Part shown: positions 28,730 through 60,480 of the stretch, one piece after another
Numbering within the stretch: the stretch's first letter is position 1
Layout: every line of letters starts with the position of its first letter
Assembly: GCA_902495355.1 (NCBI GenBank)
Contig: CABUWV010000007.1
Span: 33,686-97,685 of the forward strand
Length of the DNA stretch: 64,000 bases
From: an uncultured Collinsella sp.
GTDB taxonomy: Bacteria; Actinomycetota; Coriobacteriia; Coriobacteriales; Coriobacteriaceae
Direction: 5' to 3'
Translations under genes and position numbers: made by a program
The notes under the pieces: generated by a model
What the model saw: only the letters and a program-made list of their open reading frames with translations
Databases searched by the model: none
What the model was told of the DNA's origin: nothing

Positions 28730-28772
28730 TTGTTTGTGAGGGAAAATCATACCGAGCATACCAAATACAGGG

Positions 28773-28808
28773 GGGGTGGCGGGCACCGTGGCTGGTGTCC
28801 GCCACCCC
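28773..28808. terminator. GC-rich hairpin between convergent genes (candidate bidirectional terminator)
   Basis: GGGGTGGCGG (28773-28782) pairs with CCGCCACCCC (28799-28808). Confidence 0.5.
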
Positions 28809-44787: not shown

Positions 44788-47700
44788 ATGAGCAAACTCG
44801 TCGAGGGCATTAAAGACCGTGTGGTCGCTGTCGCACGCGAGGCTGCGCCCGCCGTGGTGGACGCCGCGCAGAAGGCCGCGACCGCGGCTGCCGAGAAAGT
44901 TGCTGAGGCAGTTGCCGATGCCAAGAACGTGGCAGGGGAGACGTCCGTCGTCAGCGAGCCCGCCACCGCCGCTGAGCCCGTAGCCGCCGCCCAGGCCCCC
45001 GAAGGCGCGATCTTCAACCCCGAGGCCGCCCGCGGCAACCTGCACCTGGGTATCGACGTGGGCTCCACCACCGTTAAGCTCGCCGTGCTCAACGACGACA
45101 ACCAGATTGTCTATGCCAAGTACCAGCGCCACCACACCGACGTCCGTGCCTGCGCCCGCGACCTGTTCGAGGGCGCTGCGACCGTGCTGCCGATGGCCCA
45201 GATGACCTGCGCCATTACCGGCTCGGGCGGCCTGCTGCTGTCCCAGTGGCTCGACCTGGAGTTTGTCCAGGAGGTCATCGCCAGCAAGCGTGCCGTCGAG
45301 ACCCTCATCCCGGCCACCGATGTCGCCATCGAGCTGGGCGGCGAGGACGCCAAGATCATCTACTTCGACAACGGCATCGAGCAGCGCATGAACGGCACCT
45401 GCGCCGGCGGCACGGGCGCCTTCATCGACCAGATGGCCACTCTGCTGCACACCGACGCCAGCGGCCTTAACGAACTCGCGGCCAACGCCACCACCATCTA
45501 TCCCATCGCCAGCCGCTGCGGCGTTTTTGCCAAGACCGACGTGCAGCCGCTGCTCAACGAAGGCGCCCGTCCCGAGGACGTCGCCGCTTCCATCTTCCAA
45601 GCCGTCGTGACCCAGACCATCTCGGGTCTGGCGTGCGGCCGTCCCATCCGCGGCAACGTCGCCTTCCTGGGCGGCCCGCTGCAGTACCTCTCCGAGCTGC
45701 GCCACCGCTTCTACCTCACGCTCAACCTGGACGAGGAGCACCGCATTGTGCCCCAAAACGCTCACCTGTTTGTGGCGAGCGGCGCCGCCATGGCGCATGA
45801 GTCCAACAAGCTCAGCACGTTCCCGCAGCTCATCGAGGCCATCGACAGCCTGGGCGACACGCAGGGTGCCGAGGTCGAGCGCCTGGATCCGCTCTTTGCC
45901 ACCGATGAGGACTTTGCCGAGTTCAAGAACCGCCACGACCAGGAAGTCGTCCCCAAGGGCAAGCTCGACGGCTACACCGGCCGCGTGTTCATTGGCATCG
46001 ACGCCGGTTCCACCACCATGAAGGCCGCGCTCGTGGGCGAGGACGGCCAGCTGCTGCACACCTGGTACGGCAACAACAACGGCGACATCCTGGGCACGGC
46101 CAAGGTCATCATGGCCGATTTCTACAACCACATCCCCGTCGGCTGCACTATCGGCCACGTGACCACCACGGGCTACGGCGAGGCGCTGCTCATCGAGGCC
46201 CTCAAGGCCGATTCCGGCGAGATCGAGACCGTTGCGCACCTGCGCGGCGCCAAGGCATTCCTGCCCGGCGTCGAGTTTATCCTGGACATCGGCGGCCAGG
46301 ACATGAAGTGTCTGCGCGTCAAGGACGGCGTTATCGAGCACATCATGCTCAACGAGGCCTGCTCGTCGGGTTGCGGTAGCTTTATCGAGAGCTTCGCCGT
46401 CTCTATGAACATGGACGTGCGCGCGTTCGCCGATGCCGCCATCCATGCCAAGGCCCCGGTCGACCTGGGCAGTCGCTGCACGGTCTTTATGAACTCGCGC
46501 GTCAAGCAGGCGCAAAAGGAAGGCGCCACGGTGGGCGACATCGCGGCCGGCCTGTCCTATTCCGTCATCAAGAATGCCCTGTTCAAGGTCATTAAGCTGC
46601 GCGACCCCAAGGAGATCGGCAGCCAGGTGATCGTTCAGGGCGGCACCTTTATGTCCGATGCCACGCTGCGCGCGTTTGAGCAGCTCACCGGCGTTCATGC
46701 CGTGCGTCCTGATATCGCCGGCTGTATGGGCGCTTACGGTGCGGCCCTGCTCGCCCGCGATCGCGCCGGCGCCGACGGCACTTCGACCATTCTTTCTGCC
46801 GAGGACATCGCACACCTCACCGTGACGCAAAAACACGTCCGCTGCGGCCGTTGCTCCAACAACTGCCAGCTCACCGTCAACGATTTTGGCGGCGGCAGAC
46901 GCTTTATCACCGGCAATCGCTGCGAGAAGGGTGCCGGCCACAAAAAGCAAAAGACCGAGGCTCCCAACCTCTTCAAAAAGAAAAACGAGCTGCTGTTTAA
47001 CCGCGAGGTGCTGAGCCCCGACGAGGCCCCGCGCGGCACCGTCGGCATCCCGCGCGCGCTCAACATGTACGAGAACTACCCCTTCTGGCATGCGTTCTTT
47101 ACGCGCCTGGGCTTTAGCGTACAGCTGTCCGACCAGTCGAGCAAAAAGACCTACCAGGCGGGCATCGAGTCCATGCCGTCCGAGAGCGTGTGCTATCCGG
47201 CCAAGATGAGCCACGGCCACGTGATGAACCTCATCGACCGTGACGTCGACTTTATCTGGATGCCGTGCGTGCGCTGGGAGCGCAAAGAGGACCCGACGGC
47301 TGGCAATTGCTATAACTGTCCCATCGTTATGAGCTACCCCACGGCGCTGGCGCTCAACATCGATGAGATCCGCGAGCAGAACATCGAGTTCCTGTACCCG
47401 TTTGTGCCCTATCACGACAAGACCGAGCTCAAGCGCCGTCTGTACCAGGTGCTCGCCGTCGACCGTGTGGCCGATGCCGAGGCCGGTCGCGGTCGCGTGC
47501 GTGGACCCAAGATCACGCGCTCCGAGGTCGATGCCGCCGTCAACGCTGCCTTTGAGGCCGATGCGCGTTTCCACGAGGATATCCAGACCATGGGCGAGGA
47601 GGCTCTTAAGTGGGTCGAGGACCACGGCGGCCACGGCATTGTACTCGCCGGCCGTCCTTACCACAACGACCCCGAGATCAACCACGCCCTGCCTGAGCTT

Positions 47701-49569
47701 ATCTCGAGCTTTGGCTTTGCGGTCTTTACCGAGGATTCGCTCGCGCATCTCGTGAAGCCCGAGCGTCCGATTCGCGTCGTTGACCAGTGGATGTACCACA
47801 GCCGCCTGTACGCCGTCGCCCGTTTTGTGACGATGCGCAACGACCTGGACCTGATCCAGCTCAATTCCTTCGGCTGCGGTCTGGATGCTCTGACCACCGA
47901 TCAGGTTCAGGAGATTCTGGAAGCCAGCGGCAAGATCTACACCGTGCTCAAGATCGATGAGGTGTCCAACCTGGGCGCCGCGCGCATCCGCATCCGCTCG
48001 CTCATGGCGGCGCTCAAGGACCAGGAGGCCGAGCGCTTGGCCGAGGCCACGGCCGCGGGCGAGGCCTACGAGCAGGGCGACGCCGCGCCGGTGGCGCCCT
48101 CCACGGATGCCCCCGCGTTCGCGAGCCGCAAGTACACGTTTGAGGCTCAGCGTGAGAGTGCTTCGACCGCGTGGCCCAAGGTGCCCTTTACCGAGCAGAT
48201 GCGCGAGGAGGGCTACACCATCCTGTGCCCGCAGATGGCGCCGATCCACTTTGACCTGGTCAAAGAGGTGTTCCGTGGTGCTGGCTACAACTTGGAGCTG
48301 CTGCCCTCGACCGATCACGATGCCGTCGAGGCCGGCCTGCGCTACGTGAACAATGACATTTGCTATCCGTCCATTTTGGTGACCGGCCAGATTATGGAGG
48401 CCATCGAGAGCGGTCGGTACGACCTCTCCAAGACGGCCGTGGTTATCAGCCAGACCGGTGGCGGCTGCCGTGCCACCAACTACATCGCACTCATCCGCAA
48501 GGCCCTGCGCGAAAGCGGCCACCCCGAGATCCCGGTGATCTCGCTTTCTGCCGTGGCGCTCGGCGAGGACAACCCCGGCTTTAAGATTACGCCGGCGCTG
48601 CTTAAGCAGGCCGTGTACGCGGTGCTCTTTGGCGACGTGATGATGCAGATGCTCTACCGCTGCCGCCCGTACGAGGCTACGCCCGGTGCGGCGAACGCGC
48701 TCTACGAGGAGTACATGGCGCGCGCCCGCAAGCTGGCGCCTAAGTTCAACCGCCACAACTACACCAAGCTGTGCCGCGAGGCCATCCGTGCGTTCGACAC
48801 CATGCCGCTCGTGGGCGAGGGCACCAAGCCGCGCGTGGGCGTGGTTGGCGAGATCTTGGTTAAGTTCCACCCCACGGCCAACAACCATGTGGTCGATGTT
48901 ATCGAGCGCGAGGGCTGCGAGGCCGTGGTGCCGGGCCTGCTCGACTTCTTCCTGTACTCCATGAGCAACGCCGAGCTGCAGAAGGACGAGCTGGGTAGCT
49001 CTGCCACTACGCGCGCGGGCATGCAGGCGCTTATTAAGCTCGTGGACTGGATGCGTACGCCGGTGGAGGAGATGCTCGAAAAGTCTCGCCGCTTTGAGGC
49101 GCCCGAGCGCATCGGTACCATGGCCGACAAGGCCCGCACGGTGCTTTCGGTGTGCAACAACATGGGCGAGGGCTGGCTGCTCACGGCCGAGATGCTCGAC
49201 CTGATCGACCACGGCGCACCCAACATCATCTGCACGCAGCCCTTCGCGTGCCTGCCTAACCACGTGGTGGGCAAGGCCGTGATCAAGGAGCTGCGCCGCC
49301 AGCACCCCGAGAGCAACATTGTTGCGGTGGACTATGATCCCGGCGCGTCTGAGGTCAACCAGCTCAACCGTATTAAGCTCATGATCAGCGTGGCCAAGGA
49401 AAACATGCGCGCCGGCAAGGGCTTTAAGCTCGAGAAGGTGGCGCCGCTCGCGATGGACGAGGTCACCGGCCAGATGCGTGCCCACGATGGCTGCGTGAGC
49501 TGCGGACCGGCCAGCGAGGAGGCCGTTGCATCGGTCGCCGAGCGTCTGGGACGCGGCATTAAGAAGTAA
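44788..49569 (+). CDS. 1593-aa fusion: Ala-rich N-terminus, two BcrAD/BadFG-type activase ATPase domains, Cys-rich linker, 'CoA enzyme activase' uncharacterised domain and 2-hydroxyacyl-CoA dehydratase D-component-like domain
   Basis: GIDVGSTTVK...NGTCAGGTGAFID and GIDAGSTTMK...NEACSSGCGSFIE (two activase modules), CGRCSNNCQ...GNRCEKG, and PRALNMYENYPFW...SVCYPAK. Confidence 0.85.
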   Translation: MSKLVEGIKDRVVAVAREAAPAVVDAAQKAATAAAEKVAEAVADAKNVAGETSVVSEPATAAEPVAAAQAPEGAIFNPEAARGNLHLGIDVGSTTVKLAVLNDDNQIVYAKYQRHHTDVRACARDLFEGAATVLPMAQMTCAITGSGGLLLSQWLDLEFVQEVIASKRAVETLIPATDVAIELGGEDAKIIYFDNGIEQRMNGTCAGGTGAFIDQMATLLHTDASGLNELAANATTIYPIASRCGVFAKTDVQPLLNEGARPEDVAASIFQAVVTQTISGLACGRPIRGNVAFLGGPLQYLSELRHRFYLTLNLDEEHRIVPQNAHLFVASGAAMAHESNKLSTFPQLIEAIDSLGDTQGAEVERLDPLFATDEDFAEFKNRHDQEVVPKGKLDGYTGRVFIGIDAGSTTMKAALVGEDGQLLHTWYGNNNGDILGTAKVIMADFYNHIPVGCTIGHVTTTGYGEALLIEALKADSGEIETVAHLRGAKAFLPGVEFILDIGGQDMKCLRVKDGVIEHIMLNEACSSGCGSFIESFAVSMNMDVRAFADAAIHAKAPVDLGSRCTVFMNSRVKQAQKEGATVGDIAAGLSYSVIKNALFKVIKLRDPKEIGSQVIVQGGTFMSDATLRAFEQLTGVHAVRPDIAGCMGAYGAALLARDRAGADGTSTILSAEDIAHLTVTQKHVRCGRCSNNCQLTVNDFGGGRRFITGNRCEKGAGHKKQKTEAPNLFKKKNELLFNREVLSPDEAPRGTVGIPRALNMYENYPFWHAFFTRLGFSVQLSDQSSKKTYQAGIESMPSESVCYPAKMSHGHVMNLIDRDVDFIWMPCVRWERKEDPTAGNCYNCPIVMSYPTALALNIDEIREQNIEFLYPFVPYHDKTELKRRLYQVLAVDRVADAEAGRGRVRGPKITRSEVDAAVNAAFEADARFHEDIQTMGEEALKWVEDHGGHGIVLAGRPYHNDPEINHALPELISSFGFAVFTEDSLAHLVKPERPIRVVDQWMYHSRLYAVARFVTMRNDLDLIQLNSFGCGLDALTTDQVQEILEASGKIYTVLKIDEVSNLGAARIRIRSLMAALKDQEAERLAEATAAGEAYEQGDAAPVAPSTDAPAFASRKYTFEAQRESASTAWPKVPFTEQMREEGYTILCPQMAPIHFDLVKEVFRGAGYNLELLPSTDHDAVEAGLRYVNNDICYPSILVTGQIMEAIESGRYDLSKTAVVISQTGGGCRATNYIALIRKALRESGHPEIPVISLSAVALGEDNPGFKITPALLKQAVYAVLFGDVMMQMLYRCRPYEATPGAANALYEEYMARARKLAPKFNRHNYTKLCREAIRAFDTMPLVGEGTKPRVGVVGEILVKFHPTANNHVVDVIEREGCEAVVPGLLDFFLYSMSNAELQKDELGSSATTRAGMQALIKLVDWMRTPVEEMLEKSRRFEAPERIGTMADKARTVLSVCNNMGEGWLLTAEMLDLIDHGAPNIICTQPFACLPNHVVGKAVIKELRRQHPESNIVAVDYDPGASEVNQLNRIKLMISVAKENMRAGKGFKLEKVAPLAMDEVTGQMRAHDGCVSCGPASEEAVASVAERLGRGIKK

Positions 49570-49596
49570 CTGGCCTGCTTTGGGCTAGATATGAGG

Positions 49597-49635
49597 CAAA
49601 CGGGTGATAGCCGTACCGGTTACCACCCGTTTTTG
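49597..49635 (+). terminator. intrinsic terminator after the giant gene
   Basis: AAACGGGTG...CACCCGTTT stem followed by TTG. Confidence 0.6.
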
Positions 49636-49654
49636 CTGGACACATGTTGCGTAA

Positions 49655-49875
49655 ATGACCTTGCTACAGCCTTCCGTGGGCTTGCCCGATTTTTGGGCCG
49701 GTTCGGGCTTTGAGGACAAGTTACTGCAGGCCCAAGGCGATTTTTCGCTCAACGCGGGCCAGCACAGCGTGACCTATCTGCCAAACGACGAGATGATCGC
49801 TGCGGACTGCCCATCGCCACCTACGAGATGGAAGCCGAGAAGTACATCTACCGCGTGTACAAGTACGAGCTGTAG
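49655..49875 (+). pseudogene. possible frameshifted gene remnant
   Basis: Protein-like text in one frame (GFEDKLLQAQGDFSLNAGQHSVTYLPNDEMIAAD) continues in another (GLPIATYEMEAEKYIYRVYKYEL, stop at 49873-49875). No family recognised. Confidence 0.2.
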
Positions 49876-50065
49876 GGCCGCGCTTAGGTTTGACCAATGG
49901 AGTATGAAAACACGCCGTTCGCCGATGCCCCCTCCGCGAGTGGCAGCCATATGGTTTGATGTCAGAAACATATAGTTGTCGCTAGCCTGCTGGCGACGTT
50001 CTCCCTGATATCGGAGGTTCCAGGTATGTTTCGCGCTCCGTTAAACAACTATCGGTTGGGCTAAC

Positions 50066-50515
50066 ATGGGTCGCCGTGCTATTTCGATAGCCCTTGCAGT
50101 GGTCTGCCTGGCTGTGCTACTGGGCGCTACAGGGCTGTTTGCTATAAGCCGAGAAACGTCCTATATGCAGGAATGCGCTTCCGAAGGGTTTGCCATTGAT
50201 GGTTTCTATCGGGATGACAAAACGAGTCGGGAAACCCTGGCTTTTCTTGAGGAGGACAACTGTCGATGGCAGCTGGTCGACCAAGACGGAATCTGCACAG
50301 ACGGACAGTTTAAGCGTACGGATGACCCCAACATCCTGATATTAAAGAAGGAAAACGGCGAAGAATTCGGTACGGTCCACGTGGCGTATATGTCACGCCG
50401 ACGCGAGCAGGGCCAGCTCTATCTATTTAGAGATAGCAAAGTGACCCGGTTTTATCTGGTGAGCACCGATCCGGCGTTTACGGTGGAGTCTGGCGATGTC
50501 GATGCGGACGTCTGA
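50066..50515 (+). CDS. hypothetical membrane-anchored protein
   Basis: N-terminal TM/signal anchor (AISIALAVVCLAVLLGATGLFAI). No recognisable domain. Weak RBS. Confidence 0.45.
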   Translation: MGRRAISIALAVVCLAVLLGATGLFAISRETSYMQECASEGFAIDGFYRDDKTSRETLAFLEEDNCRWQLVDQDGICTDGQFKRTDDPNILILKKENGEEFGTVHVAYMSRRREQGQLYLFRDSKVTRFYLVSTDPAFTVESGDVDADV

Positions 50516-50640
50516 TTCACGGCAATAAAACAGCGAGCGGGGCTCGGGTGTGAACTGCACCCCGCAATTTGCTCGTGTCCGTATCGCGTCTGCGCCTCGT
50601 CGTAACTTGCGTCCGTGCGAGCATTCATCCCGCGCCGGCA

Positions 50641-51780
50641 TCACTTCACATCAAACTCCACGCGATCGAGTTCGGGCACGTTGAGGTCAATGAGCTTGCG
50701 GCCGACGCGGCGGTCGTGTGCCCCAAGCGCCTCGCTTGTCGTCACATGGGCGACGATTTCGCGCTTTACAATGCCTTCCTCGTCCCCTTCGGTGGCCGAG
50801 GTCTCGACGGCGACGGTGTAATCCTTAAAGCCTGGCAGCACCGCCGCAAGCTCGCGCGTGGTTTCGGTGACGCCGTAGCCGTCCTGCACGCCGGCCTGCG
50901 CCGAGCCAATGGAACCCGCCGTCATAACAATGCAGGGGATGGTAAAAATCACCGTGCCCACAATGATGCGGCGGCGCACCTTGCGCGACAGCTCATCGAC
51001 CTCGGCGTCTTCCTCGGCCGTTACGACGCCGTCGCCGTTGAGGTCGCGCTTGAGCGGTACACGCAAAAGAAGCAATACGGCTTCGGCTGCCAGCGCGATA
51101 AAGACGACGTTGATGCCAAACTCGTAAAGGGCCGAGAGGAACAGCGGCCCGCTCGCGATAGCGATGCCGTAACCAGCCGCGCACAGGGGCGGCATGAGCG
51201 CGGTGGCCACGGCCACGCCGGCGATGAGCGTGGCGGGTTCCTGGTCGCGCGAGTTGCCCAGGCCGCCCGCAAAGCCGCCCGCGAGCGCGACGGCAAGGTC
51301 CCATACGGTGGGTGTCGAGTTGTCGATGATGGCCGCCGTGGTGGTGCCAAGGGGCGAGAGCTTAAAGTACAGCGTGGACGTGACCAGGCAAAAGACCATT
51401 TGCAGCGCGAGACCGGCGACGGCCTCGACGGCAATCTCGCGGTCGAGCGTGGCGATGCCGTATGCCATGGCAAGGACCGAGCCCATGAGCGGGCAGATGA
51501 GCATGGCACCTACAATGGCGATGTCCGAGTCGATATCGAGACCGATGCTCGCGATGAGCATGGCGATGATGAGGATGCATAGGTGAGAGCCGGTCAGGCG
51601 TGCCCCGTTTACAAAGCGCTTGCGAATCACGTGGTAGGGCGCGCGACCCTCGCGAATGTTGAATGCGCGCTTTAAAAAGCGACCAGCCTGTTCGGCAGCC
51701 TCACTATGGGCAGGGCGGATGCCATGGCGCCGGTGATGGCGTTCACGCAGTCGCTTGATCTGTTGTTTGTCGAGTCCCAT
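50641..51780 (-). CDS. DUF389-family integral membrane protein
   Basis: LCILIIAMLIASIGLDIDSDIAIVGAMLICPLMG motif block. Start is moved to the ATG at 51780. Confidence 0.7.
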   Translation of the reverse strand: MGLDKQQIKRLRERHHRRHGIRPAHSEAAEQAGRFLKRAFNIREGRAPYHVIRKRFVNGARLTGSHLCILIIAMLIASIGLDIDSDIAIVGAMLICPLMGSVLAMAYGIATLDREIAVEAVAGLALQMVFCLVTSTLYFKLSPLGTTTAAIIDNSTPTVWDLAVALAGGFAGGLGNSRDQEPATLIAGVAVATALMPPLCAAGYGIAIASGPLFLSALYEFGINVVFIALAAEAVLLLLRVPLKRDLNGDGVVTAEEDAEVDELSRKVRRRIIVGTVIFTIPCIVMTAGSIGSAQAGVQDGYGVTETTRELAAVLPGFKDYTVAVETSATEGDEEGIVKREIVAHVTTSEALGAHDRRVGRKLIDLNVPELDRVEFDVK

Positions 51781-52087
51781 GTCCACCTCGTTCCAGCGCG
51801 GTCCGCGCAACGCGCCCGTTGTCCTAACTCTACACCGTGGCGGGCGGGGTGTCTGTTGGATGCGGAATCCGATAGGGCGGATGACGCGGGAGCAAATGCA
51901 AATCACAGGTTCAATTCCATCCCGCGAGAATATGATGCACCAGCTCCTTCAAATGTGACGAAACTGTGAAGCACGAGAGCGTGAATTTCAAATAATACGC
52001 TGGTCGCCAATGTTGCGCAACAGAATTCAAAAATCGACAGCTACCGTTTGATACGTATGGATACATCCGTGTCAAAGGGAGAAAGCC

Positions 52088-55000
52088 ATGGCAAACTACA
52101 GTCCACAACACTTTGAGCCTCGGGCTAAGGCCGTCAACGTCAAGGGCGTTGCCAACCGCGCCGTCGCAACCGTTTTGACGGCGGGCCTCATCGCTCAGCC
52201 GCTCATGTCGCCGCTGGCGGCAATCGCGGCACCGTCAACCGATAACGGCGATTCTGTTCAGGGGGGGTAGTTCTGTAGAGAACACCGTTGTCGCCGGTAA
52301 CCAAGCGGTCGCAAAGACGGCTGCCCAGCTGGCCGAGGAGTCGGCAAAGCAGCTCAAGGACGCTCAGGCCGCCTACGATGCCGCCCAGAAGAAGGCCGAC
52401 GCGGCGGGCCAGTCTCAAAAGCAGGCGCAGCAGCAAAAGAATCAGGCCTCGCAGGCAGTAAGCGACAACGAAATCGAGCAGAACGCAGCAGAAGTCGCCG
52501 CGCTCCAGGAGAAGATCGACGAGCTTAAGGCGGCCGTCGAAAAGACCGAGCAGCAGCAGAAGAAGCTGGGCGACCTCAACGATCAGCTCGATCAGGCCAA
52601 CAAGAGTGTCGAGGATAAGACCCAGGCGCTCAAGGACGCCAAGGCAAAGCAGGATGAGGCCAAGAAGGCCCTCGACGATGCACAGGCCAAGCTCGAGGCC
52701 ATGGGTATGGACGAGTACGAGGCCGCCAAGAGGGCCGTCGAGGACGCGCAGGCAAAGCTCGATGACGCCAATAAGGCCGTTGCTACTGCACAGGCCAATC
52801 TGGACCAGGCCAAGGCTGCCGAGGCTAGCGCCCAGCAGGAAAAGAAGGACACTGAGGCCGCTCTGACGACTGCCCAGGCCAAGAAGCAGGAGACTGCCGC
52901 TGCGCTCGCAGCCGCAACCACCGCGCGCGATAACGCCCAGCAGAAGTTCAACCAGGCGCAGGCCGCGCTCGATGCTGCCGTCTCGGGTACGGGTGTCGAC
53001 CTGAGTGCGCTTGAGGCCGCCAAGATCGCTGCTGCTGGTGAGCTCAAGACCGCGCAGGCGGAGCTCAATGCCGCGACGGATGCCGACGCCACCGCACAGA
53101 CAAATCTGCAGGCCGCCCAGGCTGCCGTCGCTGCCGCGCAGGAGAAGGCCAACGCCGCCAACGCTGCTGTGGCATCTGCCCAGTCTGCATACGATGCGGC
53201 AAACAAGGAGTACAAGGACGCGGCCAGTAAGCGTGACGCCGCGAAGACGGCATACGAGCAGGCCCAGCAGACCGAGGCCGACAAGAAGGCTGAGTACGAC
53301 CGACTCGTCGAGATTCGTCAGCAGAAGAGCAACGAGTTCGATCAGGCTCGTGCTGAAGTAACCGACGCGCACAATGCATACGACGCCGCAAACGCCGAGG
53401 TCGAGAAGCTTAACCAGCAGATTGCCGACCTCAAGTCGAACATGACCGTAGATCAGAATGTCATCAACCAGGGTATGTTCGGCTTCATGAACTACATCAT
53501 CGGCGGCAGCCAGTTCACGGCCACGCAGAAAAAGAATGCCCAGGAAGCCGCATCGATGCTGACCGGTGCCGCTGACAAGGCCGAATGGTATGACAAGTAC
53601 GTCGATCAGGACATGTCTCGCGACACCAATCCGCTTTCCTTGGAGCAGATGCGCAACGCCCTGACCTACCTCGATACCCAGAACAACCTCCGCAAGGCGA
53701 ACGGTCAGTCGGAGCTCAGCGTCAGCCTCCGCATGACTGCGGCAGCCGCACTTAATACATCATATTCATCGAACATCTGGGGACACTCGAACTGCTATTT
53801 CGATCAAGGTGAGAACCTTGCGGGCGGCGGCGGAGCATACACCGGAGGCGAAACCGAGGATACCCTCGGCTGGCCATATACCGGTCTCTACACCCAGGAG
53901 AAAGAGGCATTCGATAAGTACGTTGCACAGTATGGCGACGAACTCGGCAGCCACCGATATGATTCCTACTATATCTACCAGCACTACAACAGCATCTACC
54001 ATGAGTGCGGACACTATCTCAATATCATCGATGCCGGTGCGAAGGCTATCGGCATCGCAACTGGTAGCGGTAAGAACACCGATTCCGAGGTAACCATTTT
54101 CGACTATAGTGGAAGCACGGGGCAGAAGGACTTCACTGTCTCCGAGTTCAAGAAGCTCGTCACCGACTATATCGATTCTGCTTACAATGCAGGCGGCACT
54201 CAGGAGCAGAAGGAGCAGCTGAAGCAGCTACAGAATAAGCTGGCGGAGGCGCAGAAGAACTTCGGGACTGCCGGAACGGCTTATTCTGACGCATTGGATA
54301 AGCAAGAAAGCTCTCGCGACGCCTATACCGCGGCCGACACGAACATGAACACCGCCAAGGGCGAGTATGAGAAGGCTAAGTCCGGTACCGCCGCCGCGAA
54401 GACGGCATACGACGCTGCGAAGGACGCACTCGGCGGAATCGACATCGAGTCCCTCAAGCAGAACCTCGATGCCGCCAAGGCCGAGGCCGCTACTGCCCAG
54501 GCGGCTCTCGATAAGGCAAACGCCACGCTTGCTGACAGTAAGACGAAGGCAGCCGAGGCCGCTGCTCACAAGGCGAAGGCTCGCAGCGCCCGCGATGCCG
54601 CCAAGGCAAAGTCCGAACAGGCCAATGAGGCGTATGACAACGCTACCGCTTCGGTCAAGGACCTTGCCGCCAAGTGCGATGCCGCCAAGACGGATCTTGC
54701 GAACAAGCAGGGCACGCTTAACGATGCCAAGAAGGCCGACGACACTGCCCAGGCTGGCGTTGACAAGGCTCAGGCCGCAGATGTGCACGCCGCGACCGCT
54801 CTTTCGGGCGCCAAGCAGGCAGTTGCCGCCAAGACGCAGACCCTGTCCGACGCACAGGCGAAGGCCAAGGCTGCCGAGGGCGAACTGGCCGGCGCAAACA
54901 AGGCCTTCGAGCGCTTCGCTGGAGCCCAGAAGGCGGTCGACGACGCCAAGGCCGCCTATGACGCCGCCGTCGCCGGTGTCGCCGATGCCCAGAAGCAGCT

Positions 55001-55541
55001 CGAGGCCGCCAACGAAGCCGTCGTCGATGCGACCTTCGAGATCGTCGAGGCCAAGGCCGAGCTTGCCAACGACGAGGCGCTCAAGGCCGATCTTGAGGCT
55101 GTCGACCACAAGGCATCCCTTGCCGCGGGCACGACGGGCAACGAGAAGCTGGTCAAGCTGAACGCTGCCTACGCTCGCTATAAGGCCGCCGTCGATGCCG
55201 CCGCTGGCCTCAAGGCTGCTCTGAGCGATGCCGATGCCAAGCTGTCCGATGCCAACGACGCCTATGCCGCCGCGCTTGCCGAGCTCGGAGATGCCAAGGA
55301 TGCCCTGGCTGCCGCTCAGGCCGAGTACGACAAGTATCATCCCAAGGCTGAGCCGCAGGCCAAGCCTCAGGTTGCGCAGGCTGCTGCAAAGGCCCCCGTT
55401 GCCAAGAAACAGGCTGCGCCTGCCGCGCTCGCCCAGACTGGCGACAATTCCGCGCTTGCGGGCGAGGTGTTCGTCATCGGCGGTGTGACGCTCGTGGCAG
55501 CGGGCGTGACGCTGGGCGATCGTCGTCGCAAGCAGATGTAG
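52088..55541 (+). pseudogene. frameshifted (possibly phase-variable) LAQTG-anchored coiled-coil surface protein with a central CAP/SCP (YkwD-like) domain
   Basis: The signal-peptide ORF at 52088-52270 stops right after a G7 run. A different frame is open from 52266 to 55541 and ends LAQTG + hydrophobic stretch + RRRKQM. Removing one G fuses the two. Confidence 0.8.
52261..52267 (+). repeat. G7 homopolymer at the frameshift site
   Basis: ttca-GGGGGGG-tag, read directly. Confidence 0.95.
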
Positions 55542-55608
55542 CGTTTCGAGCGTAGATTCTGCAACGAACTTCGGTTCATAGCAGGAACGCTTCGATAGCT
55601 TAACCGAT

Positions 55609-55654
55609 AAGGCCGGCGCGCTGTTAAACGCAGCGCGCCGGCCTTTCTTTGTTT
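55609..55654 (+). terminator. intrinsic terminator of the surface-protein gene
   Basis: AAGGCCGGCGCGCTG-TTAAAC-GCAGCGCGCCGGCCTT followed by TCTTTGTTT. Confidence 0.8.
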
Positions 55655-55661
55655 CGATATC

Positions 55662-55701
55662 AAAAAGCCCGGTCAGCAGCCGCAGAAGCTACCGACCGGG
55701 C
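55662..55701 (-). terminator. intrinsic terminator of the OPT transporter gene
   Basis: On the minus strand: GCCCGGTC...GACCGGGC followed by TTTTT. Confidence 0.7.
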
Positions 55702-55742
55702 AAGCCGTAGGCAATATGGTTGCTGTCGAGCAGCTGCTCGAC

Positions 55743-57446
55743 TTAGCCCAGCAGGCTTAAGCCCACGGAGACAAACGCCAGGATAACGCCGACGATGGAC
55801 TCGCCGCCGAGCAGGCCGCTGGCGACAACCAGGCCCTGTTCCTGGAAGGCGGCGTCCTTGGCAGCCCTCTCCTCGTCAGAAAGACCAGCGGTGGCGTCGC
55901 GGTGGGCGGACCACTTGTCGTAGGCGAGCTTGACGCAGGAGCCCAGGAATGCCGTGAGTGACATGTAGAACGGCAGGTACACGCCCAGGCCGATCATCAT
56001 GGCCGGAATACCGAGCCAGTACATGACGATGCCGGCGATAAAGCCGCCAACGAACCACGGCACGCTCGGGATGCCCGAGACCATGGTGGCGACGACGCTT
56101 GCCTGCGCGGCGACAAAGCTCTTGTCGGGGCCAAAGGCGTCCGGGCCATAGGCGGTGACGAGCGCGACCATGACGGCGGCGGCGACCAGGGCGCCCACGA
56201 TGCCGCCAATGGCTTGGCCGATCCACTGCGCACGCGGGTTGGTGCCCAGCACGGCGCCGGCCTTAAAGTCGTTCATGACGTCGCCCGCAAGGCCGCACGC
56301 CACGGCTACGATGCCAGCGATAAAGAACAGCTTGACCTGAGCGATCTGAGCGAAGGCAGCCACGATGAGCATAACGATGAGGCCAAAGATTTCCATGGGG
56401 TCGATGCCCGTCTGGCCGCAGCTCTGTGCGCTCATGATGGTGGTGACAAAGGTGAACAGCGTCACGATGACGGCCGGAACGGGGCCAAGGTCAAGCACGA
56501 TGGCGATGATCACGGCGATGGCGGCAGCGCCCAGGCCGATGATGCCGGCGTCGAGCTTAAGGGAGCCCGAGATGAGCGACTGCTCGTCGGTGTCGGTGGA
56601 GCTGTCGGCGGCAAGACCGCGGACGATACCGGCGACCTGCGGCAGGATGTCCTTGAGGACGACGGCGACGCCAAAGCCCATCATGAGGCCCATGCCCAGG
56701 GACTTGACGATGCCCTGTGCAGTCACAACGTCGAACAGACCGGCAGCGGTGCCGCCCACGATGATGCCAAAGTTGCCCAGCAGGGCGCCGGCAAACCAGA
56801 AGGCGACCGGGGCGAAGCCCACGAGGAAGCCGACGGAGAGCAGCATGGGCGAGTTGTAGATACCAAAGGTCACGCCGGGGATGTTGAGCGTGCATAGCAT
56901 ACTGGGCACAATGCCCAGGGCGTCGCGCAGCACGCTATAGATGCCGGCGATGGCCATGGAGCCAAAGAGCTGCTTGCCGGTTTTGCCGCCGGCCTCGGTT
57001 GCGCGCAGGGTCTGGGCAGCGGCGTTGCCGGTGGGGAACTCAAGCGCGGCGTCCACGATAAAGTGACGGTGGATGAGCGCGGTGGCCAGCAGGCCCAGGA
57101 TGGTGCCGGCGAGTGCCACGATAAACATGTCGAGCCAGCTGATCTGGTCGGCATAGCCCAGCATCCAAGCGCCCGGGATGGTAAACGCCAGGCCGCCGGC
57201 GACCATGGCGCCCGCGGACATGATGGTGTGGGTGACGTTGGCCTCGTTGAGGCTGGCGTTGCCCATGAGCTTCAGGAAGAACAGCGAGATGACGGCAGCG
57301 AAGACGATCGGCCAGGGGAGTGCGCCCATCTTGAGGGCGGTGTAGGCCGAGCTTGCCGTGATGATCACGCAGCCAAGGACGCCGATGACGACGCCACGCA
57401 GCGTGAGTTGCCCGCGCATCGAAGCACGGTTCGAGGGATTGCTCAT
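55743..57446 (-). CDS. OPT-family oligopeptide transporter
   Basis: 567 aa with about 16 hydrophobic segments. N-terminus LTLRGVVIGVLGCVIITASSAYTALKMG is typical of bacterial OPT proteins. Confidence 0.8.
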   Translation of the reverse strand: MSNPSNRASMRGQLTLRGVVIGVLGCVIITASSAYTALKMGALPWPIVFAAVISLFFLKLMGNASLNEANVTHTIMSAGAMVAGGLAFTIPGAWMLGYADQISWLDMFIVALAGTILGLLATALIHRHFIVDAALEFPTGNAAAQTLRATEAGGKTGKQLFGSMAIAGIYSVLRDALGIVPSMLCTLNIPGVTFGIYNSPMLLSVGFLVGFAPVAFWFAGALLGNFGIIVGGTAAGLFDVVTAQGIVKSLGMGLMMGFGVAVVLKDILPQVAGIVRGLAADSSTDTDEQSLISGSLKLDAGIIGLGAAAIAVIIAIVLDLGPVPAVIVTLFTFVTTIMSAQSCGQTGIDPMEIFGLIVMLIVAAFAQIAQVKLFFIAGIVAVACGLAGDVMNDFKAGAVLGTNPRAQWIGQAIGGIVGALVAAAVMVALVTAYGPDAFGPDKSFVAAQASVVATMVSGIPSVPWFVGGFIAGIVMYWLGIPAMMIGLGVYLPFYMSLTAFLGSCVKLAYDKWSAHRDATAGLSDEERAAKDAAFQEQGLVVASGLLGGESIVGVILAFVSVGLSLLG

Positions 57447-57638
57447 ATAAAACTCCTTTGCGTATATCCGCTTCCTCCGGGAGCGCCGCTACGGATACGG
57501 CGCGGGAAGTCGGGTTACCAAGGGCCGCCGCGTGAGCTCGCGCGCGACCGCGCACCAGTATAGCCGCAAGCTAGTCATTTTGGGATGACTGGTTTAGGTA
57601 GGCGATATACTGCTGGGCAGACGAAAGGAGCGCCGACG

Positions 57639-58490
57639 ATGCTTAATGGGTGCGCATATATATTGACGGTCGACGTGGGCAACACGTTCATTCGCTTTGG
57701 CCTATTTGCCGAGGATTCGGCTGCGGCGCAGGAATGTCCGCTTGCGACGTGCGAGATCACGACGCCGTCGAGCATCACGGCCGATGAGGCTCGTATGAGG
57801 CTCGCGCAGGTCATGGGCGCGCTGTCAGCCGATGCGGGCGTGCCGGGTGCACTCGTTCCCGCGGCCGCAGTGCTGAGCTGCGTGGTGCCGGCGCTCGAAC
57901 GCCCGTGGAAGGCGGCTCTTTCCCGTACCTGCACGGGGCGCGTGCTCACCGTGGGGCCGGGACTTAAGACCGGCATACCCGTGCACTACGATGACCCGGC
58001 CGAGATCGGCCCCGACCGCATCGCCGATGCCGTGGCGGCCCGTGCCGTCTACGGCTCTCCGTGCATCGTGATCGACCTGGGCACGACGACCAATATCGAG
58101 GTCATCGATACGCACGGAACCTTTGTCGGCGGCGTCATCGCGCCGGGTCTGGCACTTGGCGCCCGCTCGCTTTCGGCCGCTGCGGCGCGCCTGCCGCAGG
58201 TCGAGCCCTCGGCACCCACGCATGTGATCGGTCGCAACACGCGCGAGGCCATGCGCTCGGGCGTGGTCTTGGGCGAGGTGGCCCGCATCGACGGCATGCT
58301 CGATATGGTGCTTGCCGAGATGCGCGCGACCAAGGCGGCGGGGGAGGGCGACGTGCCCATCGTCATTACCGGCGACGACGCCGAGGCGCTCGCGTTGCTG
58401 GTCGGCCATAGCCTGACGGTTGACGACGCGCTGACGTTGCGGGGTCTCGCCGAGCTCTACCACATCAACCAAAAGCCCCGCCGCGTGTAA
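57639..58490 (+). CDS. coaX: type III pantothenate kinase
   Basis: LTVDVGNT and VIDLGTTT (ASKHA) motifs. ATG lies 8 nt after GAAAGGAG. Confidence 0.85.
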   Translation: MLNGCAYILTVDVGNTFIRFGLFAEDSAAAQECPLATCEITTPSSITADEARMRLAQVMGALSADAGVPGALVPAAAVLSCVVPALERPWKAALSRTCTGRVLTVGPGLKTGIPVHYDDPAEIGPDRIADAVAARAVYGSPCIVIDLGTTTNIEVIDTHGTFVGGVIAPGLALGARSLSAAAARLPQVEPSAPTHVIGRNTREAMRSGVVLGEVARIDGMLDMVLAEMRATKAAGEGDVPIVITGDDAEALALLVGHSLTVDDALTLRGLAELYHINQKPRRV

Positions 58491-58574
58491 AAGTGAGGGC
58501 GCCGGTGGGACAAACGCCCCCACCTTTCACCTGCTACAATGGGTCAAACTATTGCGATTTCGGAGGTGTCTGCC

Positions 58575-59099
58575 ATGTCGGACGATCTTCATCAAACTTC
58601 GTCAGGCAAGCGCCTGGACGTCATTAGCTGGGACGAGTTCTTTATGAGCGTGGCCATCGCCGCGCAGCGCCGCAGCAAGGACCCCAACACGCAGGTGGGT
58701 GCGTGCATCGCCAACACCAACCACCGCATCCTTTCGGTGGGCTACAACGGTACACCCTCGGCGCTCAACGACGACTTTTTTCCGTGGGGTACGAGCGACG
58801 ACCCGCTGCAGGACAAGCACAACTACGTGGTCCATGCCGAGGCCAACGCCGTGCTCAACTACCGTGGCTCGCTCAAGGACCTCGAGGGTTCCACGGTCTA
58901 CGTCACGCTGTTCCCGTGCCATGACTGCGCCAAGATTTTGGCGCAGGTGGGCGTGGGCGAGGTTGTCTACCTGGACAACAAGTACGCCGACACCGATGAC
59001 GGACGCATCAGCCGCCGCATCCTCGACTCCTGTGGCATCAGCTACCGCCAGGTTATCGTCGATGTTCACATCGGCACCGAGGGGCGGGCTCAGCAGTAG
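58575..59099 (+). CDS. dCMP deaminase (ComEB-type)
   Basis: HAEANA and PCHDCAK zinc motifs. ATG lies 8 nt after GGAGG. Confidence 0.85.
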   Translation: MSDDLHQTSSGKRLDVISWDEFFMSVAIAAQRRSKDPNTQVGACIANTNHRILSVGYNGTPSALNDDFFPWGTSDDPLQDKHNYVVHAEANAVLNYRGSLKDLEGSTVYVTLFPCHDCAKILAQVGVGEVVYLDNKYADTDDGRISRRILDSCGISYRQVIVDVHIGTEGRAQQ

Positions 59100-59270
59100 C
59101 GCGTGGCAACGCCAGCTGGCAACAAAAGGCAGCCAAAAGAGCCCCGTCCCAAATTGACTGCTCGTGAAAGTCGTGTCCGCGCGCATGGACGGCTCGTGAG
59201 CGGGTACACGGCTGTAGTAACATAGCTCTGTCCGCGGGCGCGCCCGCGTTATTGTGAGAAAGGAGCCCCT

Positions 59271-59549
59271 GTGGCTGTTAACGAAGAGCTGCTTAAGAAG
59301 GTTCTTGAAGAGATTCGCCCCAACCTACAGGCCGACGGCGGCGACATGGAGTATATAGGCGTTGATGACGAGGGCGTCGTCAAGCTGGAGCTTCAGGGCG
59401 CCTGTGCCGGTTGTCCCATGAGCGCCCTGACGCTTTCCATGGGCATCGAGCGTATCCTCAAGGAGCACGTGCCCGGCGTTACGCGTGTCGAGCAGGTCAA
59501 TGCCTCCGGCGAGACCGATGACCTGTACGACGAGTATGCGCCGTTCTAA
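59271..59549 (+). CDS. NifU-like (Nfu C-terminal domain) Fe-S assembly protein
   Basis: LQADGGDMEY...GACAGCPMS motif. GTG start lies 6 nt after GAAAGGAG. Confidence 0.8.
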   Translation: MAVNEELLKKVLEEIRPNLQADGGDMEYIGVDDEGVVKLELQGACAGCPMSALTLSMGIERILKEHVPGVTRVEQVNASGETDDLYDEYAPF

Positions 59550-59658
59550 GAAGTGAAAGCTGCGGGCGATATGCTCCGCATAGACGTCACGCCCGAATAT
59601 GCGGCTGCGAGCGCAAGGCCCGCGGCCGCATTTGTATGTAGGGAGCAGGGGGACCGAT

Positions 59659-60480
59659 ATGCTCAACGACCTCTACCATATGCTTGATCCCGTCGCCATC
59701 TCGGCGGGGCCCATCACCATCTACTGGTACGGCTTGGCCTATGTGGTCGGCGCTCTGCTCACGGCGGTCGTCATGTACCGCACGCAGCGCCGTTGGGGTT
59801 TTGACATTACGGTCGACGACCTGACGAGTGTCGTGGTCGGCGTGGTCTTTGGCCTTATCATTGGCGCCCGCCTGTTCTACGTCATCTTTTACGGCGACGG
59901 CTACTACTGGGCGCATCCGCTCGAGATCTTTGCTACCAATGAAGGCGGCATGAGCTTCCATGGCGGCCTGGTGGGCGGCATCATCGGCGGCGTGCTCGTG
60001 TGCCGCATGTACAAGCTCGACGCCTGGACCATCGCCGACCTTGCCGTTATCGGTGCTCCGCTGGCCTTATGTCTGGGACGCTGCGCCAACTTTGTCAACG
60101 GCGAGCTGTGGGGCAAGCCGACCGATCTGCCCTGGGGCGTGATCTTTGGCGGCACCGCGGGCGATATGCCGCGCCATCCCTCCCAGCTCTACGAGGCATT
60201 CCTCGAGGGTATTGTGCTCTTTTGCATTCTGCAGGTGCTCAGCCGCAAAAAGCCGCTACTGCCCCAAGGCACGTTTATGGGCGTCTTTGTGATGGGTTAC
60301 GGCATCGTTCGCTTTTTGATTGAGTTTGTGCGTGTGCCCGATGCGCAGCTGGGCTATCTGCTGGGCGGCGTCATCACCATGGGTCAGCTGCTGAGCCTGC
60401 CGCTCGTAATCGCGGGCCTGGCGCTCATCATCTTTGCTCGTCGCCGCAACCAACCCCAGCGCATCTACCTCGACGCTTAA
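59659..60480 (+). CDS. lgt: prolipoprotein diacylglyceryl transferase
   Basis: YWYGLAY, GGMSFHGGL and GRCANFVNGELWG motifs. Confidence 0.9.
   Translation: MLNDLYHMLDPVAISAGPITIYWYGLAYVVGALLTAVVMYRTQRRWGFDITVDDLTSVVVGVVFGLIIGARLFYVIFYGDGYYWAHPLEIFATNEGGMSFHGGLVGGIIGGVLVCRMYKLDAWTIADLAVIGAPLALCLGRCANFVNGELWGKPTDLPWGVIFGGTAGDMPRHPSQLYEAFLEGIVLFCILQVLSRKKPLLPQGTFMGVFVMGYGIVRFLIEFVRVPDAQLGYLLGGVITMGQLLSLPLVIAGLALIIFARRRNQPQRIYLDA

Follow-up and report, generated by a model that had tools for sequence, protein, structure and literature searches.

We analyzed a gene for a putative wall-anchored surface protein in a 64,000-nucleotide stretch of DNA from an uncultured Collinsella sp. (contig CABUWV010000007.1, positions 33,686 to 97,685; hereafter the window). 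A first-pass annotation of this DNA, made from the sequence alone, had proposed the locus as a candidate for phase variation that had been sequenced OFF, in which a G homopolymer separates a signal peptide from the remainder of a long protein. Reading of the sequence confirmed this layout: a run of seven G residues (G7), followed directly by TAG, splits a short open reading frame (ORF) from a long downstream frame (Table 1). The product of the 60-codon ORF (MANYS...AIAAPSTDNGDSVQGG; translation MANYSPQHFEPRAKAVNVKGVANRAVATVLTAGLIAQPLMSPLAAIAAPSTDNGDSVQGG) carries a signal-peptide-like N-terminus, a layout also present in full-length orthologs and in a plasmid paralog. The downstream frame begins with GSSVENTVVAGNQ at 52266, closes with TAG at 55539-55541, and contains no second lesion. 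As had been proposed, a tract one G shorter or two G residues longer joins the two parts, giving a continuous protein of 1150 or 1151 amino acids (aa), respectively, and both joined forms have natural counterparts in G6 and G9 alleles. In the G8 frame, the sequence reads G-V-V-L and then meets a stop three codons past the position of the tract TAG. After virtual repair of the tract, the window protein aligned over its full length with 73 orthologs.

Table 1. Positions of the features of the gene in the window.
Feature	Position	Strand	Basis and details
Shine-Dalgarno-like GGGAG	52077..52081	+	6 nt 5' of the ATG; read from the sequence
60-codon ORF, translated in the G7 (OFF) state	52088..52270	+	ATG at 52088
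Signal-peptide-like N-terminus, residues 1-47	52088..52228	+	Basic n-region, hydrophobic AVATVLTAGLIAQPLMSPLAAIA, predicted cleavage after A-I-A; sequence inspection
Poly-G tract, G7 in the window, codons 58-60	52261..52267	+	Modal length elsewhere G9 (Q-G-G-G)
TAG directly 3' of the tract	52268..52270	+	Terminates the G7 and G10 frames
Downstream frame of the mature protein, 1091 codons plus stop, intact	52266..55541	+	1092 codons open
N-proximal helical arm, ~390 residues, Ala/Lys/Gln/Glu-rich	52272..53441	+	Composition and translation; head-adjacent part is one long helix in the AlphaFold2 model
Globular head with CAP/PR-1 domain	53442..54197	+	Pfam match at 53670-54107; alpha-beta-alpha core in the model
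Head motifs	GENLA within 53808-53834; GHYLNIID at 54009-54032	+	
C-proximal helical arm, ~380-390 residues	54198..55337	+	Translation and AlphaFold2 model
Ala/Pro/Lys-rich spacer, which would span the cell wall	55338..55424	+	
Cell-wall sorting signal	55428..55538	+	LAQTG 55428-55442, hydrophobic segment 55443-55517, RRRKQM 55521-55538
Intrinsic-terminator-like hairpin	55609..55655	+	16-bp stem and T-rich tail; hairpin itself 55609-55645

The gene is monocistronic, because a terminator-like hairpin lies 3' of it and the neighboring gene is convergent. G7 runs were depleted in the window (two observed versus 7.6 expected from shuffles). A G7 run per se is unremarkable; what goes beyond chance is its placement between two long, homolog-supported frames, together with its conservation.

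The joined protein of approximately 1151 aa comprised a central CAP domain between two helical arms. It had previously been described as a coiled-coil protein; the long helical arms agreed with that description, whereas the central CAP/PR-1 domain had been overlooked. Pfam PF00188 (CAP/PR-1) matched residues 528-673 of the joined protein across the whole model (positions 1-117 of 117) with 39.4 bits against a cut-off of 21.1 (E = 1.2e-9), and SMC and PgrA models gave coiled-coil matches in the N-proximal arm that fell below threshold. An AlphaFold2 model of residues 400-800, with a mean predicted local distance difference test score (pLDDT) of 73.6, showed a long helix, an alpha-beta-alpha head, and another long helix. 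A Foldseek search with this model returned PrgA (6z9l_A) as the top match (E = 1e-4; probability, 1.00), with a template-modeling score of only 0.18-0.31. PrgA was the sole PDB match at E < 0.001, followed by the CAP structures of PR-1 and GAPR-1 with probabilities of 0.8-0.9.

The C-terminal spacer, LAQTG, hydrophobic segment, and RRRKQM were present at the end of the frame, as the first-pass annotation had stated, and the sorting signal was kept in the orthologs and in the plasmid paralog (NLAQTG...KKRREQM). Judging from these motifs, the protein of approximately 1151 aa is probably attached to the wall by a sortase, and the attribution of LAxTG to class E sortases is plausible; neither a sortase gene nor a sortase signature was found in the 64-kb window. 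The mean pairwise ratio of nonsynonymous to synonymous substitutions (dN/dS) was 0.21 for the whole protein, 0.14 for the CAP head, and 0.24-0.27 for the arms, and the protein is under purifying selection. All homologs with a source name came from C. aerofaciens or Collinsella sp., and RefSeq labels the intact 1151-aa copy of C. aerofaciens TSDC17.2-1.1 as 'CAP domain-containing protein'.

Comparison among strains demonstrated that the tract length is variable, with in-frame G9 and G6 alongside out-of-frame G7, G8, and G10. We scanned GTDB with one genome per species, which yielded 503 relatives; the best 80 were kept, and the tract and start were readable in 76. Approximately 70 of these carried G9 and three carried G6 (L027, L081, and L086), all in frame, while the out-of-frame lengths G8 and G10 occurred in two (L014 and L067) and one (L013), respectively. 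One locus tallied as G9 (L064) has an A-to-G change that gives a ten-G run with the frame kept. At 70 GTDB loci, the encoded protein was intact, with a length of 1103-1169 aa and RRRKQM or RRRKHM at its end. Universal disruption of the gene had been suggested by a first protein search, in which nearly all of the 120 matches listed covered 46-70% of the query and most were approximately 699 or 790 aa long with the N-terminus absent; the DNA-level scan, with its 70 intact orthologs, led us to reject it. The short gene calls are explained by nonsense alleles, OFF alleles, contig ends, and what may be a gap in an assembly or scaffold.

Public assemblies extended this range. A pattern scan of metagenome contigs that permitted any 3-18 bases between the conserved flanks matched at least 120 contigs; among the matches listed (120), there were 80 with G9, 13 with G8, 12 with G7, nine with G10, and six with G6, and the tract was pure G in all of them. 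We further predicted the truncated product for each OFF length and looked it up exactly in indexed public assemblies. The G7 product (60 aa, identical to that of the window) was found in 1887 index blocks, the G8 product (63 aa) in 2205, and the G10 product (61 aa) in 1953; those of G4 (59 aa), G5 (62 aa), and G11 (64 aa) were found in 68, 30, and 44 contigs, respectively. The overall range was therefore G4-G11, with identical flanks and pure G throughout. The longest contigs with the G7, G8, and G10 products exceeded 2 Mb each, and the sources of OFF products included the cultured isolates Collinsella sp. CLA-AP-H1 (G7) and C. aerofaciens GT464 (G10) as well as RefSeq WP_ entries. OFF lengths also lay on high-coverage contigs (G7 at 70x in L206, G10 at 20x in L171, and G8 at 11x in L187 and at 167x in L226) and on contigs of 0.2 to 2.3 Mb. 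The relatives were not uniformly in frame: OFF lengths were present in isolates and in contigs of 70-167x. A distant variant (P0099) has ATKGDSAIE at the tract site and no tract, so that the tract characterizes the C. aerofaciens-like group.

The OFF alleles were otherwise largely intact. We examined 26 OFF alleles on long contigs; their strains share only ~91-94% identity with the window. Of these alleles, 25 kept the entire downstream ORF, including one counted as intact with an R-to-C change in the tail (L230); the sole exception (L232) comes from a 2.09-Mb contig whose sequencing technology is unknown. All four tract-OFF alleles of the GTDB-plus-window set were likewise intact after virtual repair. 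This intactness argues against a decaying pseudogene, and, together with the G4-G11 polymorphism and the common OFF lengths, supports the proposal of a phase-variation candidate sequenced OFF. OFF lengths were scattered over the tree in many lineages, and tract length is without phylogenetic signal. Length differed in 29% of the pairs with identical 1.5-kb flanks, compared with 37% expected for random pairs; the tract therefore changes faster than point substitutions accumulate. Only nine substitutions in 5.9 kb separate the window, with G7, from its nearest relative (L013), which has G10.

The composition of the tract was also informative. GGG accounts for only 6% of the Gly codons in the window genes, and the tract has two consecutive GGG codons. 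In the flanks, 17% of the four-fold sites were invariant, and both GGG third positions never varied among 171 sequences (roughly p = 0.03). The rarity of GGG, the invariance of these third positions, and the depletion of G7 runs suggest that a pure-G tract is maintained.

It is improbable, given these data, that the window lineage carries a fixed pseudogene, that is, a gene being lost with the tract as the site of its first lesion. The window and its closest relative are both out of frame, and in the same frame; irreversible loss-of-function alleles exist in other strains, as described below; and G7 should slip less easily than G9, such that the state of the window may be long-lived. Nevertheless, all 1091 downstream codons of the window are intact although many of them are AAG, CAG, or GAG, which a single change turns into TAG, and the further downstream lesions expected of a dead gene were not found. 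The dN/dS between the window and L008 was 0.18, indicating that constraint is not relaxed, and both the 25 intact OFF alleles elsewhere and the position of OFF states at tree tips in many lineages disagree with progressive loss.

We consider it likely, with a probability of roughly three in four, that a real ON/OFF locus of the slipped-strand type is present and that the window represents a genuine OFF state. The observations behind this reading are the anatomy of the locus, the polymorphism over many lineages, the intact OFF alleles, the purifying selection, and the maintenance of pure G. DNA polymerase slippage on the G run would add or remove G residues during replication. Slippage errors on G9 would stay unrepaired, because MutS-MutL and NucS were both reported absent from all Coriobacteriia analyzed (PMC5290159). 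G9 and G6 would be ON, reading Q-G-G-(G)-S-S-V-E... into the full secreted, wall-anchored protein, while G7 and G10 would run into TAG and G8 would meet its stop three codons on, all three being OFF. OFF cells would produce only the signal peptide and approximately 13 further residues. The tract occupies codons 58-61, approximately 11 codons past the predicted A-I-A cleavage site; in-frame length changes would be harmless because the tract encodes a short Gly linker near the start of the mature protein, and no polarity problem would arise because the gene stands alone. We infer that switching within clones is fast and reversible and that surface display is lost in OFF cells.

Several observations weigh against a slipped-strand switch. 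The approximately ten isolates among the GTDB representatives were all ON (nine G9 and one G6). The length distribution showed no 3-nt periodicity past the G9 peak, and G7 was as frequent as G8; the latter may reflect a longer dwell from slower slippage on shorter tracts. Among the contigs with coverage in their names, the non-G9 fraction dropped with coverage (Fisher p = 0.006), from 85% below 2.5x to 30% at 2.5-5x, 44% at 5-8x, 22% at 8-15x, and 12% at 15x or more, and many low-coverage contigs were chimeric or had further frameshifts. Part of the metagenome spread is therefore read noise, minor variants, or poor assembly, and the apparent variation is inflated by low-coverage contigs. Short reads and assemblers are unreliable at the tract, as also reported for Illumina reads through G tracts (PMC9187656), and calls at very low coverage were mostly not G9. 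One contig of a metagenome-assembled genome (MAG; L058) has the first G of the tract as its opening base.

Some of these points also bear on whether the genome truly carries G9 or G6, with the G7 of the window arising from a sequencing or assembly error at the homopolymer. In addition to the dependence of tract calls on coverage and the difficulty of sequencing G tracts, the tract is the site at which three assemblies (L058, L075, and L084) are broken or joined, and the closest relative (L013, at approximately 6x coverage) has G10 rather than G7. However, the tract was the only private indel of the window in 12 kb compared with 87 related loci, and the other long ORFs in the window, of up to 1593 aa, were intact; the window is therefore not a generally error-prone assembly, and an error-prone long-read assembly was rejected for it on the same grounds. 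The G7 allele recurred in the index blocks mentioned above, among them a contig at 70x, contigs > 1 Mb, and one from a cultured isolate, and a consensus-level two-base error is unlikely with short-read data. An error in the window thus appears to have only a slim chance of being correct, comparable to that of the fixed pseudogene.

The slipped-strand reading must also accommodate alleles that cannot be restored by slippage at the tract. Nonsense alleles were found in L001 (K313*), in L002 and L043 (Q241*), in L074 (stop at approximately codon 342), and in L239 (stop at approximately codon 710; its protein cluster has 51 members). They are independent, occur in different strains, and all have an in-frame G9 tract. 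The two examined at the DNA level are TAG codons derived from AAG (L001) and CAG (L002), and TAG is the expected nonsense codon in the CAP gene because of its AAG, CAG, and GAG codons. Recoding of TAG, prompted by these two alleles, was rejected, as TAG is the ordinary stop of several window genes. One further allele (L238) has an extra frameshift besides G10.

Foreign DNA at the gene adds to these losses. In five samples (L003-L007), the gene is interrupted at the equivalent of window position 54357, and the product of 769 aa belongs to a protein cluster of 25 members. The interruption follows ...NTA, in the last 15-130 nt of the contigs, where the foreign DNA reads GGTCACTCGAAAAACTAAACGCAACGCTGCAAAGG; the contigs end soon after the junction, as at a repeat. 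This DNA had no match in plasmid or viral collections. In two GTDB MAGs (L075 and L084), foreign DNA is joined exactly at the tract. In each of these contigs (positions 1-56), the first 53 nt are foreign and lead directly into GGGTAGTTC, the junction corresponding to window position 52265. The same 40-mer as in this junction DNA was found in two IMG/VR viral contigs, and in L236 (680-2390) it adjoins an ORF for a reverse transcriptase (Pfam RVT_1) with an Rfam RT-2 RNA (RF03077; 141 bits) ahead of it. From these sequences, a mobile or viral element with a reverse transcriptase and its RNA appears to have become linked to the gene within the G run.

Loss of the CAP stalk protein is thus tolerated or sometimes favored, which fits fluctuating selection on a surface structure. 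The same alleles are equally compatible with a tract that is a mutational hotspot, tolerated rather than selected as a switch. We therefore hold the adaptive part of the interpretation more tentatively than the switch itself, with somewhat less than even confidence: the locus may be a selected contingency locus by which Collinsella bet-hedges the display of a core PrgA-like CAP fibril of approximately 55 nm across and within human hosts. Heterogeneity would then be of benefit through escape from immunoglobulin A (IgA) or phage, or through altered aggregation or adhesion. OFF variants would be favored episodically by secretory IgA, by fibril-using phage, or by an altered need for aggregation or conjugation, and such episodes would also account for the recurring irreversible knock-outs by nonsense mutation and by interruption by, or junction with, foreign DNA. 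On this view, short tracts like G7 would represent slower, semi-locked OFF states.

It is very unlikely that OFF lengths still yield full-length protein, with the tract tuning its level through transcriptional slippage or +1 ribosomal frameshifting at GGG-TAG: a slippery GGG does stand directly before the stop in G7 and G10 alleles, in a layout that resembles known +1 frameshift sites, and OFF alleles are common and remain intact, but the dominance of in-frame G9 would be unexpected if frameshifted decoding were efficient, and no stimulatory element was found.

Other types of switch were considered and rejected. No convincing inverted repeats were found around the promoter region, as an invertible promoter would need, and the gene has no tandem repeats. 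The other G7 run of the window (28770-28776) was rejected as a related site, being intergenic, between convergent ORFs, and inside a GC-rich terminator-like hairpin (GGTGGCGGGCACC...GGTGTCCGCCACC). No Rfam families were found at window positions 48000-60000, and a sigma-70 promoter scan upstream of the gene, which is uninformative for this phylum, returned nothing.

The gene lies in conserved synteny with genes for a 2-hydroxyacyl-CoA dehydratase/activase and a DUF389 protein on one side, and with genes for an OPT transporter, type III pantothenate kinase, dCMP deaminase, NifU, and Lgt on the other. At positions 44788-49569, the window encodes a 1593-aa ORF that fuses a BcrAD_BadFG ATPase with DUF2229 (2-hydroxyacyl-CoA dehydratase/activase-like). 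The interval between this ORF and the DUF389 gene is strain-variable, as a 3-hydroxyacyl-CoA dehydrogenase gene and fragments of an arylsulfotransferase gene are present or absent. The plasmid paralog (1092 aa; L209, 4546-7824) is encoded near parA/parG on a 30-kb C. aerofaciens plasmid (NZ_CP084005.1). In this distant paralog, a signal peptide is followed by a helical arm, a CAP domain, and a further helical arm, and the C-terminus carries NLAQTG, a hydrophobic segment, and KKRREQM. The paralog lacks a homopolymer tract, the identity in the CAP domain is 34%, and its location on a plasmid recalls PrgA.

Although phase variation is textbook knowledge for mucosal pathogens, reports of it from abundant gut commensals are scarce. 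Among the gut Actinomycetota, Collinsella ranks with the most prevalent, and it is apparently without any known mismatch repair. If the proposed switch is real, a very common human gut bacterium would offer a population-wide ON/OFF marker with natural heterogeneity, which could be read from metagenomes and could probe in vivo selection on a major surface structure by IgA, phage, or aggregation. The conserved, uncharacterized PrgA-like CAP 'lollipop' is likely a dominant surface feature of Collinsella. For annotation, pipelines split OFF alleles into a 'hypothetical protein' of 60-64 aa and an N-terminally truncated CAP protein, and homopolymer calls at the tract in low-coverage MAGs are not to be relied on. 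Our literature search, of limited coverage, found nothing on Collinsella in connection with phase variation, homopolymers, or the CAP protein, which is weak evidence that the switch is undescribed so far.

The closest known switch is that of the sortase-dependent pilus genes of Bifidobacterium, in which replication slippage acts on an intragenic G tract (B. breve bbr_0113 and bbr_1889; PMC9187656). Both systems belong to gut commensals of the Actinomycetota, and both have a G tract (9-12 residues) near the 5' end of a sortase-dependent surface gene that is divided into 'a' and 'b' ORFs. Tract length differs from strain to strain in both, and an in-frame length restores a single ORF. In contrast to Bifidobacterium, Collinsella belongs to the class Coriobacteriia, for which both mismatch repair systems are reported absent, and the tract lies in a single monocistronic CAP stalk gene rather than in a pilus operon. 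The commonest database state is in frame in Collinsella, in contrast to the out-of-frame reference of B. breve. Switching has been measured experimentally in B. breve and is proposed for Collinsella from the comparison of assemblies.

The locus also resembles the contingency loci of Campylobacter, Helicobacter, Neisseria, and Haemophilus, in which a poly-G/C tract in the 5' coding region gives frameshift ON/OFF states, OFF alleles remain intact, and length is uncorrelated with phylogeny. As in Campylobacter and Helicobacter, functional mismatch repair is reportedly absent. These classical systems, however, belong to Gram-negative pathogens with dozens of loci per genome, whereas Collinsella is a Gram-positive commensal, and one such coding tract was seen in the 64-kb window. 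Among actinobacteria, Mycobacterium tuberculosis lacks MutSL and possesses NucS, and its short coding G/C homopolymers lead to frequent, reversible loss of function. Reversible homopolymer frameshifts reportedly include that in the 7C tract of glpK; unlike the Collinsella surface protein, glpK is a metabolic gene tied to drug tolerance.

With respect to the encoded protein, the comparison is with enterococcal PrgA/Sec10 of pCF10 (PDB ID: 6Z9L), which comprises a signal peptide, a helix (residues 55-303), the CAP domain, a second helix (residues 531-798), and LPxTG, and which forms a 40-nm two-helix stalk with CAP at its tip (bioRxiv 10.1101/2020.06.18.156562). The Collinsella protein has the same order of parts, with a central CAP domain between long helices; from its longer arms, a PrgA-like 'lollipop' with a stalk of approximately 55 nm would be expected. 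Its arms are approximately 390 residues long, compared with approximately 250-270 in PrgA, and its sorting motif is LAQTG rather than LPxTG. Membership in the PrgA/Sec10 family by sequence was rejected, as the NCBIfam model TIGR04320 (PgrA) scored 56.7 bits against a cut-off of 70, with its best stretch at residues 171-274 in the N-proximal coiled-coil arm, and the PrgA PDB chains gave no phmmer or profile match to the Collinsella protein; the similarity is one of architecture and fold only. PrgA is encoded on a conjugative plasmid beside genes for aggregation substance and a type IV secretion system, whereas the Collinsella gene is chromosomal, in housekeeping synteny and not adjacent to conjugation genes. 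PrgA is not known to be phase variable. The mechanism is accordingly familiar; what is new is the host lineage and the target, an uncharacterized core PrgA-like CAP stalk, with population-level support that is unusually broad.

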